Shown: one piece after another, positions 22,478 through 45,873 of the stretch
Layout: every line of letters begins with the position of its first letter
How positions within the stretch are numbered: position 1 is the first letter of the stretch
Program-made: the position numbers and the translations under genes
DNA from: an uncultured Acidimicrobiia bacterium
GTDB lineage: Bacteria; Actinomycetota; Acidimicrobiia; Spongiisociales; UBA5794
Reading direction: 5' to 3'
DNA length: 64,000 nt
Assembly: GCA_963708235.1 (NCBI GenBank)
Contig: OY970200.1
Location: forward strand, 847,757 to 911,756
Notes under the pieces: model-generated
The model's database searches: none
What the model was told of the DNA's origin: nothing
What the model saw: only the letters and a program-made list of their open reading frames with translations

Positions 22478-22648
22478 TCATTTCGGGAAGGGTTTACCGG
22501 GTGGACCGTCATCGCCGACCTTGCGCATCTTGATCTGTCGGATCAGGACGGCCGCCCGCTGGTAGTCGGCGAGTGCGGCCTCGCTGTGCCCGCGGCTGGT
22601 GGCGGCAACGCCACCGATGATCTCGATCGGTGCGGAGCGGTCGTTCAT
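22478..22648 (-). CDS. Small hypothetical ORF (56 aa) immediately 3' of the SIR2 gene and the poly-G tract.
   Basis: MNDRSAPIEIIGGVAATSRGHSEAALADYQRAAVLIRQIKMRKVGDDGPPGKPFPK. No ribosome-binding-site spacer (GGAACGAGG directly abuts the ATG) and no recognisable family. May be spurious. Confidence 0.2.
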   Translation of the reverse strand: MNDRSAPIEIIGGVAATSRGHSEAALADYQRAAVLIRQIKMRKVGDDGPPGKPFPK

Positions 22649-22667: not shown

Positions 22668-22692
22668 GGGGGGGGGGGGGGGGGGGGGGGGG
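22668..22692. repeat. 25-nt homopolymeric G tract (poly-C on the minus strand).
   Basis: Uninterrupted G25 read directly from the sequence. Intergenic, 19 nt 3' of the SIR2 gene stop and ~215 nt 3' of the convergent NDH-2 gene. Confidence 0.9.
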
Positions 22693-22711: not shown

Positions 22712-24268
22712 TCATCGCCCGCCGTCGTCCAGCAGGAACAGCTCGGCCAGGGCGTGTTCGATCGAGGGCAGCGACACCTGGCGGAGTGCCGACAGCCGCT
22801 GGGCGAGGACACTGCGGGGCGCCGGTTCGGTCGAGGCAAGGGTGACCGACCCCACCGGGAGCCGGCCCCAGACGTCGCTCTCCACATACAGCGGGATGCC
22901 GACGACGTGGTTCCAACGGGACAGCGTCTGATGGGTGGTGGAGCGCGAAACCAGGCTGCCGGAGCAGAACGCCTGGACGGCGACGAAGTCGCTCTTCCAA
23001 CCGACCGGGACCGGAGCAAGGGTGCTCGGATCTCGCCACACCCGATCCGACGAAGCCCAGTTGGTGAGGCTCTCCGACCGTGGGTCGTAGATCCACAACG
23101 CCACCCCGAGACGCTCGTCGTTGCCGATCCCGTGGCCGTCGCCCGACAGATCTTTGCGCACCCCGTCCGCCAGCGCCGCCATGACGGCGTGGAGGGCATC
23201 CTGCACCCGTTCGAATTCCCCACGATCGGGGACGAACACGGTCTCGGAGATCCGGCGGCGCCACTCGTCCAGCCGGTCCGGAAACGGCCGGTAGGCGACG
23301 CCGGCGGCCCCGGTGCGGGTGTAGTGCACGATCTCGTGGAGGAGCTGGGCGCTCTGTGCGTAGAAGTCGGCCTGGACCGGTTCGACGCCGACCGCCTTCC
23401 ATCGAGACGTCGCGGTCAGCTCCCGGGCGGCGGCGACCGCCGGCGGAGTCGAGTCGTACAGCGACGACGACTGCTGGCGGACGAATACCGCCACGTGCAT
23501 GGTGGTGCCGTCGGCCCGGTACAGGTAGCGCAGCAGGTTGGGGTCGGTGAGGCTCATCCCGACGAACAGACAGGTCGATGCGGAGAGCCGGTCTGCGAAG
23601 AACTGCTCCTGCCAGGTCTCCGGCTGCTGCATCCGGTGGTAGTCCTGCTCGGAGAGCACCACGGTGCCGCGCTCGCGGCCCCGAGGGGTGATGACCCCGT
23701 GGAGGTGGAGCACCGATCTCCTCACGTCGCCGATCGAGTCCGGATGCACCATCCACGTTGCGGATCCACGCTTCAACCCGAGGGCCGCCGTCAGGGCCGA
23801 CTCGAGGACCAGGTCGTAGTTGGTCGTGGTGAGGCGGCTGCCGCTGTCCTCGGGTTTGGTGAGCAGCAGACTGGTCGCCGCCCGGGCGGTGGCCCCTGGC
23901 AGCGGGGTGAGTTGCTGTTCGTAGAGCGCCGTGTGCAGTGCCGGCACGAACCCGTCCCGGAGGGCTGCCTTGACCACGGCGGCGGCCCCGGTCAGCGAGT
24001 CGCCCCGGATCGTCCAATCGGCGAACTGGTCGCAATCGTCGCCGGCGAGTCCATGGTGGCGAGCTACCTGGACCAGCAACCGCCGGACCAGGGTGTCCCA
24101 GTTGGGGAACCCGACTTCGATCGAGCTGCCGGCTCCCACCACGAGCGTCATCTCCCGTGCCTCGGCCAGGCGTGCGATGAGCTGCTGCACCCCGTCGGTG
24201 CGAAAGAAGTCGCACAGGCCGCGTCTCCCCGTCTCGGTTCCGGTGTCCGGTCGTCCAGTCTCGGTCAT
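22712..24268 (-). CDS. Stand-alone ThsA-like SIR2 (SIR2_2/DHS-like NAD-binding) protein with a C-terminal GAF-like sensor domain. Candidate NAD+-depleting defense effector.
   Basis: 518 aa from MTETGRPD (M263 of ORF 22712..25054). The motif order VVGAGSSIEVGFPNW...TTNYDLVLE...VLHLHGVI...LSEQDYHRM...LFVGMSLTDPNLLRYL matches B. cereus ThsA (FAGAGLSMSVGYVSW...TTNYDRLIE...KMHGDV...FLFVGFSFTDPNL). The C-terminal ~230 aa (LHAVMAALADGV...GVALWIYDPRSESL...HVVGIPLYVESDVWGRLPVGSVTLAST...IEHALAELFLL) has a GAF-like alpha/beta pattern rather than a SLOG pattern. Confidence 0.75.
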   Translation of the reverse strand: MTETGRPDTGTETGRRGLCDFFRTDGVQQLIARLAEAREMTLVVGAGSSIEVGFPNWDTLVRRLLVQVARHHGLAGDDCDQFADWTIRGDSLTGAAAVVKAALRDGFVPALHTALYEQQLTPLPGATARAATSLLLTKPEDSGSRLTTTNYDLVLESALTAALGLKRGSATWMVHPDSIGDVRRSVLHLHGVITPRGRERGTVVLSEQDYHRMQQPETWQEQFFADRLSASTCLFVGMSLTDPNLLRYLYRADGTTMHVAVFVRQQSSSLYDSTPPAVAAARELTATSRWKAVGVEPVQADFYAQSAQLLHEIVHYTRTGAAGVAYRPFPDRLDEWRRRISETVFVPDRGEFERVQDALHAVMAALADGVRKDLSGDGHGIGNDERLGVALWIYDPRSESLTNWASSDRVWRDPSTLAPVPVGWKSDFVAVQAFCSGSLVSRSTTHQTLSRWNHVVGIPLYVESDVWGRLPVGSVTLASTEPAPRSVLAQRLSALRQVSLPSIEHALAELFLLDDGGR

Positions 24269-24361
24269 GTGTTCATCTCTCCCTGACCGGAGTGTCCCAG
24301 CCCGGTGTGACACAAACGGGCGATGAGTGGCCGGGTCCGTCGAGGTGCCAGACTTCCGCAG

Positions 24362-25208
24362 ATGAGCGACGCCCTCCCCGACTCCATCCCCACCGTCATC
24401 GTGTCGCGCCGGGTCCGTCCGGGGTCCGAGAAGGAGTTCGAGCGCTGGAACAACCGGCTCCGCTCCGCTGCCGAGAAGTTCCCCGGCCATGTCGGATCCG
24501 AGACCCAACCGCCGAATGCCGCCCATCCCGAGGACTGGGTCGTCCTCTACCGCTTCGCCACCGTGGAGGAGCTCGACCGCTGGCTCACGTCGCCCGAGCG
24601 CACCGCACTGATGGCCGAGGGGGCGCCGTTCGTCGAGGGACCGGTCAGCGAGCAGCGGATGATGGAGCCGGTTCACCGCGACCAGGCAGTCACCGCCGTG
24701 ATGTCGCAGCGGGCACGGCCCGGGGCCGATGCAGAGCTCCCGACGCTTCCACCGTGACGTGACCGCCGTGATGTCCGACTTCCCGGGCTTCCTCCGCTCC
24801 GACCTGCTCGATCCGGTGCCGGGAGCCCAGGCGGACCACGTCATCGTGTTCTCGTTTGCGTCGCGGGCCGACCTCGACAACTGGCTGGACTCGGAGGAAC
24901 GCCGCAGCATGCTCGACCGCATCGGCCCGCTCATCGAGGGCGAGCGCACCTTCAACGTGGTTGGTGGATTCGCCGGATGGTTCGGGCCCAACGACGCCGG
25001 GGGACCGGTCGCCTGGAAACAGGCAGTGGTGGTGTTGGTCGCCCTGTTCCCCACCAGCGTGTCGCTGCGCTACCTCCAGCTCCAGATCGTCCCCGATCTT
25101 CCGTGGGTACTCGGTGTGTTCACCCTCAACGTCATCGCCATCGTCATCCTCAACTGGTTCCTGATGCCCCTGGTGACCGGCTGGTTCGGATCGTGGCTGC
25201 GCCGGTGA
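24362..25208 (+). CDS. Tandem ABM-like (antibiotic biosynthesis monooxygenase/Dabb fold) two-domain protein with a C-terminal TM helix. Apparent frameshift near nt 24735.
   Basis: Domain 1 is RPGSEKEFERWNNRLRSAAEKFPGHVGSE...WVVLYRFATVEELDRWLTSPER. Domain 2 is RPGADAE/RRFHRDVTAVMSDFPGFLRSD...HVIVFSFASRADLDNWLDSEER, split between ORF 24323..24757 and ORF 24729..25208. A single-base indel rejoins them. Divergent from the SIR2 gene. Confidence 0.5.
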
Positions 25209-41808: not shown

Positions 41809-41985
41809 CAACGGATGGCGGCGCCCGTGACCCCGTGGCGCGGTGCAGCGGTCACGGGCGCCGGTCGGCGCAGGAGCGAAGTGCCGTACCGGACGAACCG
41901 CTGACGGGTCAGGCGGTCGGTGCAGCCGAGGGTCGGGTCCGGGGTGCCGGCCAAGCTGGCCGGCCGGATACGCTGTGTGTTCACT

Positions 41986-44900
41986 ATGACGGACCTCCAG
42001 CACGACCTGCGCGCCCAACTGGACGGGCTTTCCCCCGGGGATCGGGACCGGTTCCGGCGACGTATCGCCGGGGCAGGCAGGATCTCCGATCCGGCGAAGC
42101 GCACCGCCACCATGGCGATGCTCGGCGACGAGATCGACAAGGCGGTCGAGCGCACCGTGCGGCGTCGGACGCTGGCACCGAAGAAGCTCAGCTATCCGGC
42201 GGAATTGCCGATCACGGAGCGGCGCCAGGAGCTGCTCGACACGATCCGGGACAATCAGGTGGTGATCGTGGCGGGGGAGACCGGGTCGGGCAAGAGCACG
42301 CAGCTTCCCAAGATGTGTCTCGAGCTCGGCCGCGGGCTCGACGGTTGGATCGGGCACACCCAGCCGCGTCGGATCGCGGCGCGGTCGATCGCCGAGCGGG
42401 TCGCCTCCGAGTTGGGTGGGAGCATCGGCGGGTTGGTCGGCTACACGGTGAGGTTCTCCGACCAGGTCGGCGAGGACACGATGGTCAAGGTGATGACCGA
42501 CGGCATTCTCCTCAACGAGATCCATCGCGACCGCCGGCTCCGTCGTTACGACACGATCATCATCGACGAGGCCCACGAGCGCAGCCTCAACATCGACTTC
42601 CTGCTCGGCTACCTCACCCGGCTCCTGCCCGAGCGGCCCGATCTCAAGGTGATCGTCACCTCGGCCACCATCGACACCGAGCGTTTCGCCACACATTTCG
42701 GTGGCGCCCCGGTGATCGAGGTCTCCGGACGTACCTATCCGGTCGAGATCCGGTACCGGCCACTCGACGACCCCACCTCCCCCGAGCCGCGGGACCAGAC
42801 CCAGGGGATCGTCGACGCCGTCGCCGAACTGACCCGGGGCGACACCGGGGATGTCCTGGTGTTCTGCTCCGGTGAGCGGGAGATCCGCGATGCCGCCGAC
42901 GCCCTCGTCGAGTCCAACCTGCGTCACACCGAGATCCTCCCGCTCTATGGGCGCCTGTCGTCCGCCGAGCAGCACCGGGTCTTCCAGGCCCACACCGGGC
43001 GCCGGGTGGTGATCGCCACCAATGTCGCCGAGACCTCGCTCACCGTCCCCGGAATCCGCTCGGTGGTGGATTCGGGAACCGCACGGATCTCGCGGTACTC
43101 CCGCCGCACCAAGGTGCAGCGGCTCCCCATCGAGCCGGTGTCGCAGGCGTCCGCCAACCAGCGCGCCGGACGCTGCGGGCGACTCGGACCCGGGATCTGT
43201 ATCCGTCTCTACGACGAGAACGACTTCAACGCCCGACCCGAGTTCACCGAGCCCGAGATCCTCCGCACCAACCTCGCCTCGGTCATGCTGCAGATGGCGG
43301 CGCTCGATCTGGGTGACATCGAGTCCTATCCGTTTCTCGATCCCCCGGACAAGCGGGCGGTCAAGGACGGGCTGGCGCTGCTCCACGAACTGGGCGCCGT
43401 CGACCCGACCCGGGAGGGGACCCGCAGCTGGCTGACCCCGATCGGTCGCCAGCTCGCCCAACTCCCCCTCGACCCCCGGCTCGGTCGGATGGTGGTGGAG
43501 GGAGATCGGAACGGATGTCTCGCCGAGGTGCTGGTGATCGCCTCCGCCCTCTCCATCCAGGACCCGCGGGAACGTCCCAAGGACGAGGAGGAGAAAGCGA
43601 AGCAGATGCACGCCCGGTTCCGTCATCCCGACTCGGACCTGCTCGGGATCCTGGCGCTGTGGCGCCATCTCAACGACGAACGCAAGCAGCGCACCTCCAA
43701 CCAGTTCCGCCGGATGTGCCAGGAGGAGTTCCTCAACTACCGGCGGGTGCGGGAGTGGCAGGACATCCACTCCCAACTCCGCGACGTCGCCAAGGAGCTG
43801 GAACTCCGACCCAACCGCAAACCCGCCGACCCCGACCAGGTCCATCTCTCGCTCCTCGCCGGGCTGCTCTCCCATGTCGGGAAGAAGGACCCCGTCGGCT
43901 ACGAGTACCGGGGTGCCCGCGGCGCCAAGTTCTCGCTGTCACCAGGCTCCACGCTGTTCAAGAAGACGCCGGAATGGGTGATGGCCGCCGATCTGGTCGA
44001 GACCAGCCGTCTGTGGGCGCGCGGCGTTGCCGCCATCCCGCTGGAATGGATCGAACAGGTCGGTGCCCACCTCCTCAACCGTACGCTGAGCGACCCGTGG
44101 TGGGACATCGAGCGGGGGTCCGCCGTCGCCCAGGAGTCCGTCACGCTCTACGGGATCCCGCTGGCCGCCGACCGGACCGTCCAGTACGGCCGCTTCGACG
44201 AGGCGGCCTCCCGAGACCTGTTCATCCGTCACGCCCTGGTCCACGCCGAGTGGCCGGACGACCATCACCGCCACGAATTCGTCCTCCGCAACCTCGGTCG
44301 CATCGACGAGGTCGCCGAGCTCGAAGCCAGGCAACGACGCAGCGATCTCCTCGCCGACGAGGACCGCATCGCCGCCGTCTTCGACCAGAAGCTCCCCGCC
44401 GACGTCACCACCGTCGCTGCCTTCGACCGCTGGTGGCGGGAGACCCGATCCGCCACCCCCCACTTTCTCGACCTCACCCTCGACGATCTGATCGATCCCG
44501 CTGCTGCCCTCCCGGACCCCGAGGCGTTCCCCGACACCTGGCGACACGGGGACCTCGCCATGCCCATCGAGTACCAGTTCGACCCGGAAAGCCCCAGCGA
44601 CGGTGTCGTCATCGAGGTCCCGCTGGCGGGTCTCGACCGGGTCGATCCCGCCGTATTCGAGTGGAATGTCCCCGGCCGCCGTCCCGAGCTCATCGAGGCG
44701 CTGGTGCGGTCGCTGCCAAAGGCGATCCGCCGCCAGTTCGTCCCCATCGCCGACACCGTCGATACGCTGGTCGCCGGCCTCGACCCGGCGGCCGGCGCCC
44801 CCCGCGAAGCGTTGCGGCGTGAACTGGTTCGCCTCTCCGGGACCCCGATCCCGCCCGATGCCTTCGATCTCACCAAGATTCCCGCCCACCTCCGCCCGCG

Positions 44901-45873
44901 GTTCCGTGTGGTCGACACCGACGGCACCTCCGTCGCCGAGGGAGACGACCTCGCCGACCTCAAGCACCGTCTGGTCGCCGATGCCCGCTCCCTCATCGAG
45001 AGCGACGGTCACGAATTGGAGCGGCGCGGCATCACCGCCTGGGACCTCGGCGAGCTTCCCCGCAGCGTCATGGTCGGCGACGCCGCCCACCGCACCCGCG
45101 CCTACCCGGCGCTGACCGACGAGGGGGACTCGGTCGCGATCCGTCTCGTCGCCACCCCCGACGAGCAGGCAGACGCCATGTGGCACGGGACGATCCGGCT
45201 GTTGCTGCTCAATCTGCCCTCGGCGCAACGTCTGCTCGAGCCGATGCTCGACAACGCCGGTCGGCTCGCCATTCGCTCCGGTCCCTACGACAGCCCCGCC
45301 GAGTGGGTCGACGATGTGCTCGGATGCGCCGTGGGCACCATCGTCTCCGAGCACGGCCGACTCCCATGGGACGCCACCGCGTTCGACTCGCTGTTCCGCA
45401 CGGCCAGGGACCAGCTCGCCGACCGGGTCTATGCGGTCGCCGATACCTCGCTGGCCCTCCTGCAGACCTTGCACACCGTCGAGATCGCCCTCGGGAGGCT
45501 CGACATCGACCGCCACGCCGAGCCGGCCGCCGACATCCGCAGCCAGATCGACCTGCTGGTCTACCCGGGATTCCTCACCGCCGTCGGGGCGGTGCGGGTG
45601 GTCGACATCCACCGCTACCTGCGCGCCGTCGAGCGCCGCCTCGACCGTCTCCCTCGCCACCCCGAGGCCGATCTGGCACTGATGGTCAACGTGCATCAGC
45701 TCGAGGACGAGTACGACCGGCTCGCCGAACTGCTCCCGCCCAGCCCGGAGATGGTCGACATCGCCTGGATGCTGCAGGAGTACCGGGTCAGCTTGTACGG
45801 CCAGTCGCTCGGCACCAAGGGCAAGGTCTCCGAGAAACGGATCAGCCAGGCACTCGCCGATCTCGTCGGGTGA
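41986..45873 (+). CDS. hrpA: ATP-dependent RNA helicase HrpA (DEAH-box).
   Basis: GETGSGKSTQLP (Walker A), DEAHERS, SATID, and the full-length 1295-aa HrpA C-terminal extension. Confidence 0.9.
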   Translation: MTDLQHDLRAQLDGLSPGDRDRFRRRIAGAGRISDPAKRTATMAMLGDEIDKAVERTVRRRTLAPKKLSYPAELPITERRQELLDTIRDNQVVIVAGETGSGKSTQLPKMCLELGRGLDGWIGHTQPRRIAARSIAERVASELGGSIGGLVGYTVRFSDQVGEDTMVKVMTDGILLNEIHRDRRLRRYDTIIIDEAHERSLNIDFLLGYLTRLLPERPDLKVIVTSATIDTERFATHFGGAPVIEVSGRTYPVEIRYRPLDDPTSPEPRDQTQGIVDAVAELTRGDTGDVLVFCSGEREIRDAADALVESNLRHTEILPLYGRLSSAEQHRVFQAHTGRRVVIATNVAETSLTVPGIRSVVDSGTARISRYSRRTKVQRLPIEPVSQASANQRAGRCGRLGPGICIRLYDENDFNARPEFTEPEILRTNLASVMLQMAALDLGDIESYPFLDPPDKRAVKDGLALLHELGAVDPTREGTRSWLTPIGRQLAQLPLDPRLGRMVVEGDRNGCLAEVLVIASALSIQDPRERPKDEEEKAKQMHARFRHPDSDLLGILALWRHLNDERKQRTSNQFRRMCQEEFLNYRRVREWQDIHSQLRDVAKELELRPNRKPADPDQVHLSLLAGLLSHVGKKDPVGYEYRGARGAKFSLSPGSTLFKKTPEWVMAADLVETSRLWARGVAAIPLEWIEQVGAHLLNRTLSDPWWDIERGSAVAQESVTLYGIPLAADRTVQYGRFDEAASRDLFIRHALVHAEWPDDHHRHEFVLRNLGRIDEVAELEARQRRSDLLADEDRIAAVFDQKLPADVTTVAAFDRWWRETRSATPHFLDLTLDDLIDPAAALPDPEAFPDTWRHGDLAMPIEYQFDPESPSDGVVIEVPLAGLDRVDPAVFEWNVPGRRPELIEALVRSLPKAIRRQFVPIADTVDTLVAGLDPAAGAPREALRRELVRLSGTPIPPDAFDLTKIPAHLRPRFRVVDTDGTSVAEGDDLADLKHRLVADARSLIESDGHELERRGITAWDLGELPRSVMVGDAAHRTRAYPALTDEGDSVAIRLVATPDEQADAMWHGTIRLLLLNLPSAQRLLEPMLDNAGRLAIRSGPYDSPAEWVDDVLGCAVGTIVSEHGRLPWDATAFDSLFRTARDQLADRVYAVADTSLALLQTLHTVEIALGRLDIDRHAEPAADIRSQIDLLVYPGFLTAVGAVRVVDIHRYLRAVERRLDRLPRHPEADLALMVNVHQLEDEYDRLAELLPPSPEMVDIAWMLQEYRVSLYGQSLGTKGKVSEKRISQALADLVG

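Follow-up and report, generated by a model that had tools for sequence, protein, structure and literature searches.

SIR2 NAD+ hydrolases (NADases) are recurrent executioners of bacterial immunity, and what sets each known system apart is the way its enzyme is turned on: a SLOG domain with glycocyclic ADP-ribose (gcADPR), a phage tail tube protein, HerA, pAgo, or deoxyinosine triphosphate (dITP). To our knowledge, every characterized effector of the SIR2_2 type (ThsA, DSR2, KomC, SIR2-HerA, and SIR2-APAZ) is an NADase that stays off until a ligand or partner shifts its oligomeric state, and new SIR2 systems appear regularly in the literature. Here we consider a gene at 22712..24268 on the (-) strand of a 64-kb stretch of DNA from an uncultured Acidimicrobiia bacterium (contig OY970200.1; the whole stretch is called the window below). 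An earlier note, made from the letters alone, had described this gene as a stand-alone ThsA-like SIR2 NADase fused to a GAF-like sensor and as a candidate one-gene defense system. Both domain assignments are borne out by the analysis that follows. The one-gene description has to be abandoned, because the conserved unit is a two-gene cassette: a small open reading frame (ORF) on the same strand lies directly downstream of the SIR2-GAF gene at every locus examined. We consider the chances somewhat better than even that this cassette would be an undescribed module, SIR2-GAF plus small protein, for anti-phage abortive infection by NAD+ depletion.

The catalytic half

The SIR2-GAF gene comprises 518 codons and a stop, with its ATG at 24266-24268 and GGGAGAG 5′ of the ATG, and all the motif strings quoted in the earlier note are found in its translation. 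A 780-aa alternative frame from the ORF finder was rejected as a high-GC artifact, because homologues start no earlier than residue ~15 of the 518-aa form. Among 5.8 billion proteins searched, ~70 relatives were found, nearly all of them ~500 aa long, with 35-53% identity over 90-97% of the query, and every one carries the Pfam domain SIR2_2 (PF13289), which in the window protein matches aa 146-258 (E=4e-17; 63 bits, the curated threshold being 24.5 bits). The SIR2_2 NADase domain as a whole extends over aa ~18-321 (23306..24217, (-) strand) and contains the Gly-rich NAD loop and the motifs TTNYD, HLHG, and SLTDPNL. In an alignment of 46 sequences, the invariant residues of this half are G45/A46/G47, T148/N150/D152, H188/H190/G191, and, within SLTDPNL, D242/N244. 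A profile search of the PDB aligns TTNYD with 109-WTTNYD-114 of ThsA and HLHG with 150-KMHG-153 (numbering of 6lhx); therefore, N150 corresponds to ThsA N112 and H190 to ThsA H152, which we take to be the residues whose mutation abolishes ThsA NADase activity. The 2 codons, their coordinates checked, lie on the (-) strand at 23819-23821 (Asn150, within TTNYD) and 23699-23701 (His190, within HLHG); the pair picked out earlier as catalytic is in register with ThsA and invariant in the 46 homologues.

The same picture emerges from the fold. The AF2 model of the full-length protein, built on the homologue alignment, has a pLDDT of 92.2 and a pTM of 0.92, and Foldseek against the PDB matches it to ThsA (8bto and 7uxt, E~1e-10), DSR2, and KomC/HAM-SIR2. 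These matches to defense sirtuins (E=1e-10 to 1e-7, probability 1.00) always involve the first ~300-390 residues, and the partial matches to PADLOC models (ThsA, Dsr1, and LmuA) are restricted to aa 35-318. For canonical deacylase sirtuins, the NAD loop alone matches in the profile search (E~2e-3); the closest relatives in both sequence and fold are exclusively defense NADases and not deacylase sirtuins. Pfam, Foldseek, and the profile alignment thus agree on a ThsA-like SIR2_2 NADase domain, as had been supposed. As judged from its aligned residues, the SIR2 half is a catalytically intact SIR2_2 domain of the defense type with the catalytic residues in register, and we infer that the protein hydrolyzes NAD+.

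The C-terminal half

With the full protein as query, Pfam, NCBIfam, and PADLOC gave no match to the C-terminal ~200 aa. A profile search of the PDB with this domain found no GAF chain and no similar chain at all, and 0/26 family C-terminal domains matched the Pfam GAF models (GAF, GAF_2, GAF_3, and others), even at E<=10. The sole approach that assigned the domain was fold comparison on the predicted structure, in which 2 methods gave a GAF fold for a model with pLDDT 92-93; therefore, the earlier guess of a GAF-like domain in place of SLOG, which had been made from the pattern of residues, was right at the level of the fold. The domain covers aa 322-518 (22715..23305, (-) strand) and has the GAF layout, with 2 linker or N-terminal helices followed by beta-beta-alpha-beta-beta-beta and a long C-terminal helix. 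A SLOG identity is excluded at the fold level, and a PAS identity is unsupported by the fold comparison.

Within the family, conservation of the domain comes close to that of the catalytic half. The C-terminal half is conserved at full length across the ~70 homologues, with a mean pairwise identity of 0.37 as against 0.41 for the catalytic domain. Residues that are invariant or nearly so, and specific to this family, are R332, F352, Q356, E385, W392, D408, R409, G437, R451, W452, P459, G473, T476, and S479; strictly invariant in the 46 sequences are R332, F352, Q356, E385, W392, R409, G437, W452, P459, and G473. The conserved motifs peculiar to the domain are ERLG..LW, SSDRxWRDP, SRWNHV, and GRLPVG..T.AST.

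GAF domains are classically metabolite sensors, with ligands that include cyclic nucleotides, bilins, and amino acids. Proteins can also be the ligand: the GAF-like domain of the T4 holin, which is among the fold matches of the C-terminal domain, binds the antiholin. In the CapP/IrrE immune and stress peptidases, GAF contributes to a single-stranded DNA (ssDNA)-binding groove and to the binding of the substrate protein (PMC13228613). For the family studied here, the conservation of the domain and its invariant Arg, Asp, Glu, and Trp residues suggest a conserved ligand or interface, which they would fit better than a variable phage protein. Since the conserved residues are of the pocket type and the small partner is fast-evolving, a small or otherwise conserved GAF ligand is favored over binding of that partner. 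We therefore favor a division of labor in which the GAF domain would read such a ligand and the small protein would act elsewhere, as a brake or an adaptor.

A GAF-like domain dedicated to SIR2

The size and exclusivity of the family were addressed with a profile hidden Markov model (HMM) of the C-terminal domain, scored on 1.84 billion cluster representatives (50% identity). At E<=1e-3 it matched 683 proteins, of which 444 remained at E<=1e-10, i.e., at least 444 clusters, and in almost all of the top 150 matches the domain is placed at ~310-500 of a ~500-aa protein. SIR2_2 is retained in 9/10 family members of atypical length, and proteins that consist of the GAF-like domain alone proved to be frameshift fragments in error-prone assemblies, which the small ORF follows as well. 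On these 2 grounds, the GAF-like module is essentially a dedicated appendage of the SIR2 clade. The exception is P0197, a 520-aa metagenomic cluster representative with the GAF-like domain at residues 268-457 (E=1e-25) and, in place of SIR2, an N-terminal ~230 aa with no Pfam match; it may be a chimeric gene call or a different effector joined to this sensor. The hosts are mainly Actinomycetota (Acidimicrobiia, Thermoleophilia/Solirubrobacterales, and plasmids of Actinomycetes), together with one metagenome-assembled genome (MAG) of NC10, and the distribution is patchy. The GC content of the window, 68%, and the taxonomy of its homologues point to Actinomycetota.

The small downstream partner

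In the window, the partner, which the earlier note had missed, is a 56-aa ORF at 22478..22648 on the (-) strand, stop included (MNDRSAPIEIIGGVAATSRGHSEAALADYQRAAVLIRQIK..., isoelectric point (pI) 9.8). Its GC content at codon positions 1/2/3 (0.67/0.51/0.79) is gene-like, it is significantly homologous to the small ORFs of the nearest clade, an HMM that excludes it gives it 26.5 bits (9.6 for the highest-scoring of 1000 shuffles), and an exact copy of the 56-aa sequence is present in a protein collection from NCBI/ENA sources (P0071). Neighbors were compared as six-frame ORFs, all against all, within +/-5 kb of the SIR2 gene at 20 loci, and the same-strand small ORF directly 3′ of that gene is the sole recurrent one; no third gene, be it TIR, cyclase, or other, recurs in the same flanks. 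With the further loci included, a small ORF of 46-117 aa is found at every one of the ~25 distinct loci examined, always on the same strand and with its start anywhere between 10 nt ahead of the SIR2 stop and 65 nt past it. At 3 loci (L013, L004, and L015), it overlaps or abuts that stop, starting 10 or 3 nt before it, which is consistent with translational coupling. The linkage also holds from the other side. A profile of the small protein, run against the same 5.8 billion proteins, found 9 relatives, and the 2/2 whose context was inspected each follow a 499-aa SIR2_2 gene at a distance of 59-65 nt. The small ORF and the SIR2 gene are, thus, reciprocally linked by homology searches.

By sequence, the small proteins form groups that parallel the clades of SIR2-GAF. 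Those of the window clade, to which the window ORF belongs, are small and strongly basic (pI 10-12) with the motif (T)RI[VI]GG[VI]AR.S.GHS...Y..A....[IV]K; those of the Solirubrobacterales clade have EI.+.L.DG...AWD[ST][ST]E and often a basic tail; a third group has LPNGDVLIQD..R.RPEVE..F; and the plasmid type has RSAVTG[RK][YF]V. No known domain was detected in any of them, nor an antitoxin-type DNA-binding domain of the HTH, RHH, or AbrB kind. A partner of 46-117 aa with no known domain is easily overlooked, and so the system is easily mis-scored as a single gene. Many of the Solirubrobacterales-clade proteins (L008-L021) have a basic stretch and then AA or AAA at the C-terminus (RRVAA, RRAASA, RRAAA, SRRTAA, KSAAA); these ends are reminiscent of an ssrA-like degron, which would fit a protease-labile regulator. 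Fusion of the small protein to the C-terminus of SIR2-GAF, as a Rosetta-stone case, is not supported: P0178 and P0197 have tails with a superficial resemblance to it, but these score no higher than shuffles.

Genomic contexts of the homologues

Several of the loci lie among defense or mobile-element genes. At L024/L025, the cassette is part of a type I restriction-modification (R-M) operon (hsdR-S-M), with hsdM overlapping the SIR2 start by 4 nt; at L022/L023, it resides in an integrative-conjugative-like element with an integrase, a TrwC relaxase, and ImmA/HTH; at L001, an integrase and an excisionase adjoin SIR2-GAF; at L031, GmrSD is <=4 kb away; and at L018, HEC-05 is nearby. In Ca. Solirubrobacter pratensis URHD0082 (L020:11842-15887), 2 different SIR2 NADase systems stand side by side, the cassette being back-to-back with a pAgo system made up of an 845-aa Aga_SIR2-PNTD1-PNTD2 protein (PADLOC E=0) and a 504-aa neighbor. 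The plasmid members from Rhodococcus and Paenarthrobacter adjoin recombinases, insertion sequence (IS) elements, a gene annotated as "abortive infection family protein", and a helicase. A different setting is seen in MAG GCA_041594715.1 and its relatives (L027-L030), in which an identical 46-aa ORF and a 499-aa SIR2 gene sit between holA and comEC in a region otherwise given to housekeeping (rpsT, greA, lepA, hrcA, dnaJ); records of the 46-aa protein come from 152 contigs, which makes this a very abundant environmental lineage with the cassette.

Neither synteny nor a conserved metabolic partner was found among the loci, and no ThsB/TIR was found among the annotated neighbors of the homologues. 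Patchy, non-syntenic placement, seen here locus by locus and sometimes in defense islands or mobile elements, is typical of defense genes. A conserved partner exists, in the form of the small ORF, and the defense context holds for a subset, with many loci lying among housekeeping genes.

A model for the cassette and its rivals

That the GAF-like domain is fused exclusively to SIR2, that the 2 domains are what they are said to be, that the catalytic residues are in register, and that the small ORF is linked to the SIR2 gene are observations. A role in defense is plausible from family resemblance and from the partial defense-island and mobile-element context. The model would run as follows. The first gene would encode an SIR2 NAD+ hydrolase with a divergent GAF domain in the position where ThsA has SLOG, and the second gene, directly downstream and probably co-transcribed, a small (46-117 aa), fast-evolving, usually basic protein. 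In the resting oligomer, the SIR2 active site would be kept inactive. The GAF domain would read an infection-associated cue through the conserved polar and aromatic cluster of E385, W392, D408/R409, and R451/W452, and the cue would, as in ThsA, DSR2, and KomC, trigger a switch in conformation or oligomeric state; NAD+ would then be hydrolyzed, and the infected cell would stop growing or die (abortive infection). Since the characterized SIR2_2 effectors are held off until triggered, the GAF domain as reader of the trigger is the most economical reading. The small protein would be a regulatory subunit; the leading guess is a labile, antitoxin-like inhibitor, because of the order and tight coupling of the genes and, in the window clade, the complementary charge of their products, and the alternative is a nucleic-acid-binding co-sensor or adaptor. 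A more specific version, in which the GAF domain would directly sense a small molecule derived from infection (nucleotide- or NAD-related), with no synthase in the operon and with the partner as a labile brake on the NADase, is possible, if rather doubtful. If it were true, infection would be detected at the level of metabolites without a dedicated signaling enzyme, which would amount to a new class of abortive infection.

The same arrangement of genes invites a reading as a toxin-antitoxin (TA)-type addiction or stress module, in which SIR2-GAF would be the NAD+-depleting toxin, the small protein its labile antitoxin, and a host metabolite the cue for the GAF domain; such a module would stabilize mobile elements or respond to general stress. 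We regard it as unlikely, with the proviso that it overlaps the abortive-infection model, because many TA modules also defend against phage. The large enzyme does come first and the small, fast-evolving partner second, with stop and start codons that sometimes overlap, and in the window clade the charges are complementary (pI ~5.8 for SIR2-GAF and 10-12 for the partner); members are carried on plasmids and integrative elements, and RES-Xre and MbcTA provide a precedent from general knowledge. Against this, the partner is not always basic, its pI being 4.6-6.5 in several clades, the DNA-binding domains common to antitoxins (HTH, RHH, AbrB) were not detected in it, and a simple TA pair needs no dedicated conserved sensor domain. 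Quite unlikely, in our estimate, is a housekeeping or regulatory enzyme unrelated to phage defense: a metabolite-gated NAD+ glycohydrolase, deacylase, or ADP-ribosyltransferase that would tune NAD+ or modify the Ser/Thr/Arg-rich small protein downstream. Against it, there is neither synteny between loci nor a conserved metabolic partner, and the taxonomic distribution is patchy; moreover, the nearest relatives are all defense NADases, canonical sirtuins matching in the NAD loop only, at E~2e-3, and several loci are in R-M, pAgo, GmrSD, or mobile-element contexts. What speaks for it is that many loci, the window included, lie among metabolic or housekeeping genes, that the cassette is stable between holA and comEC on >150 contigs of one abundant MAG lineage, that the phage databases searched hold no SIR2-GAF member, and that metabolite sensing is the classical role of GAF.

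It is very unlikely that the small ORF is irrelevant, as it would be in a single-gene system or in a Thoeris-like effector that answers to a nucleotide signal from a TIR or cyclase encoded elsewhere. The layout of SIR2 followed by a C-terminal ligand-sensor domain is indeed that of ThsA, and DSR1 and DSR2 are known precedents for acting alone; however, the small ORF is kept in position at every locus and in sequence within clades, no other neighbor is conserved, and no TIR/ThsB or CD-NTase gene was found in the window or among the annotated neighbors.

Several observations weigh against the abortive-infection model itself. The GAF fold is promiscuous, binding small molecules, ssDNA, and proteins and, in fRMsr, serving as an enzyme, so that the fold alone names no ligand, and the GAF families of the cyclic nucleotide (cNMP) type show no sequence-level match to the C-terminal domain. 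Homology between the groups of small ORFs is marginal, for which reason conservation across groups is claimed by position alone, and the small ORFs at L007 and L018 are backed mainly by position. The neighbors are another difficulty: those in the window are housekeeping genes (NDH-2, ABM, DUF5996, and an M28 peptidase), as are most of the 100 neighbors scanned in 15 genomes. Finally, no phage or viral homologue was found in IMG/VR (by family pattern) or INPHARED (by tblastn). For the abortive-infection model, the plasmid members of Rhodococcus and Paenarthrobacter would be culturable starting points.

Surroundings of the cassette in the window

The small ORF of the window sits between a homopolymer tract and the NDH-2 gene. 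The tract is G25 (C25 on the coding strand) at 22668-22692, 19 nt 3′ of the SIR2-GAF stop and within the 63-nt spacer that separates this stop from the small-ORF start; its length is exactly the 25 nt first reported. No other homopolymer in the window reaches 8 nt, and none of the homologous loci has such a tract in the corresponding spacer. Its origin may be artifactual, from assembly or sequencing; alternatively, as a slippage-prone stretch or a C-rich site for Rho loading, it could modulate how the small ORF is expressed. Scans for promoters and terminators, Rfam families, tRNAs, and repeats around the locus returned nothing informative.

The flanking genes had been named as NDH-2 and ABM, and both identities stand (the former by Pyr_redox_2). 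The claim that NDH-2 converges on the SIR2 gene does not, because the small ORF lies between them, and it is on the small ORF that NDH-2 converges. ABM matches are found in 2 overlapping ORFs in different frames, at 24323-24757 (+) (E=3e-6) and 24729-25208 (+) (E=2e-3), with a near-identical 17-nt repeat (24689-24705 and 24759-24775) that encodes a repeated VTAVMS; a single tandem-ABM gene, broken by a frameshift or at a duplication junction, may account for the pair. The absence of a TIR or cyclase partner, noted earlier, was confirmed: PADLOC models of ThsB/TIR and CD-NTase (E<=1e-6) match none of the 44 gene products of the window, and none is conserved across the ~25 loci.

PADLOC run on the same 44 products also reports mad3 (2 genes, best E=7e-30), mad8 (2 genes, 3e-18), mad2 (5e-19), AriA (5.5e-10), and CARF3 (4e-7), which may be generic matches to ATPases, kinases, or methyltransferases or may mark a MADS-like defense locus elsewhere in the window. 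An ORF of 1440 aa at 30414-34736 (+) has a long Gly-rich (GGxGG) center and repeated immunoglobulin (Ig)-like C-terminal segments and appears to be a large protein of the secreted or surface type. Neither it nor a secreted protein of 901 aa at 56884-59589 matches a PDB sequence, and a full-length HrpA-type DEAH RNA helicase, a housekeeping gene, lies at 41920-45873 (+) (E=0 to E. coli HrpA structures).

Comparison with known systems

PADLOC v2, NCBIfam, and Pfam contain no SIR2-GAF architecture, and, subscription-only papers aside, we found no literature that describes it or links the 2 domains in defense. The statement in the earlier note that no SIR2-GAF system had been described is, thus, upheld for these databases and for the searchable literature.

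The nearest system is Thoeris. Like ThsA, the protein has an N-terminal effector and a C-terminal sensor in ~480-520 aa, and the SIR2_2 domain of ThsA gives the best matches (PDB profile E=7e-21 to 4e-18; Foldseek E~1e-10). Unlike ThsA, the sensor is GAF rather than SLOG, and a conserved small gene lies downstream, with no ThsB/TIR present or conserved. The PADLOC ThsA models match weakly and in the SIR2 part only (E=1e-14), and the features that define Thoeris, namely a C-terminal SLOG or Macro domain (for gcADPR or histidine-ADP-ribose (His-ADPR)) and an adjacent TIR-domain ThsB, are lacking. DSR1 and DSR2, which are examples of single-gene SIR2 systems, share an SIR2_2 NADase effector with a fused C-terminal sensor (PADLOC Dsr1 E=3e-11, plus the Foldseek matches). 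They are, however, ~1000-1270 aa long (DSR1 ~1260), with large helical sensors that bind phage proteins and with neither a GAF domain nor a small partner, and the NCBIfam Dsr1 model (NF041818) gives 37.5 bits, in the SIR2 part only, against a cut-off of 1400 bits, which places the protein outside DSR1.

With KomC, SIR2-HerA, and SIR2-pAgo, the cassette shares an SIR2 effector in a multi-gene defense setting with partner- or ligand-induced assembly, a mode of activation that we infer for the cassette; the Kongming protein KomC (HAM-SIR2) is among its top matches in both fold and sequence. The partners in those systems are enzymes, ATPases, or Argonautes (KomA/KomB, HerA, pAgo), whereas here the sensor is fused to SIR2 and the sole conserved partner, at 46-117 aa, has no known domain. 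Among GAF proteins, CyaB2, PDE2A, DcsbIS, fRMsr, and IclR-C resemble it in having a regulatory-type module beside an enzyme; the domain differs from theirs in its own conserved motifs and shows no similarity to them at the sequence level. CapP/IrrE is a precedent for a GAF domain in an immune or stress regulator (PMC13228613), with the difference that its GAF surface serves ssDNA and a protein partner and not a small molecule.

At all loci, the genes for enzyme and small protein are co-oriented and tightly spaced, which is the layout of type II TA systems. The resemblance to RES-Xre and MbcT-MbcA, each with an NAD+-consuming enzyme and a small partner in 2 genes, is one of logic only: their toxins have the RES/ART fold and their antitoxins, which are Xre/HTH proteins, are usually encoded upstream, whereas the SIR2-GAF partner is domain-less and encoded downstream. 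NAD+-degrading toxins with small antitoxins, such as RES-Xre and MbcTA, are a known principle, as is defense by SIR2-mediated NAD+ depletion; what we read as new is the GAF sensor and the micro-protein partner. A widespread, Actinomycetota-centered family of this kind would add to the known SIR2 systems an activation logic of its own and, possibly, a new infection signal.

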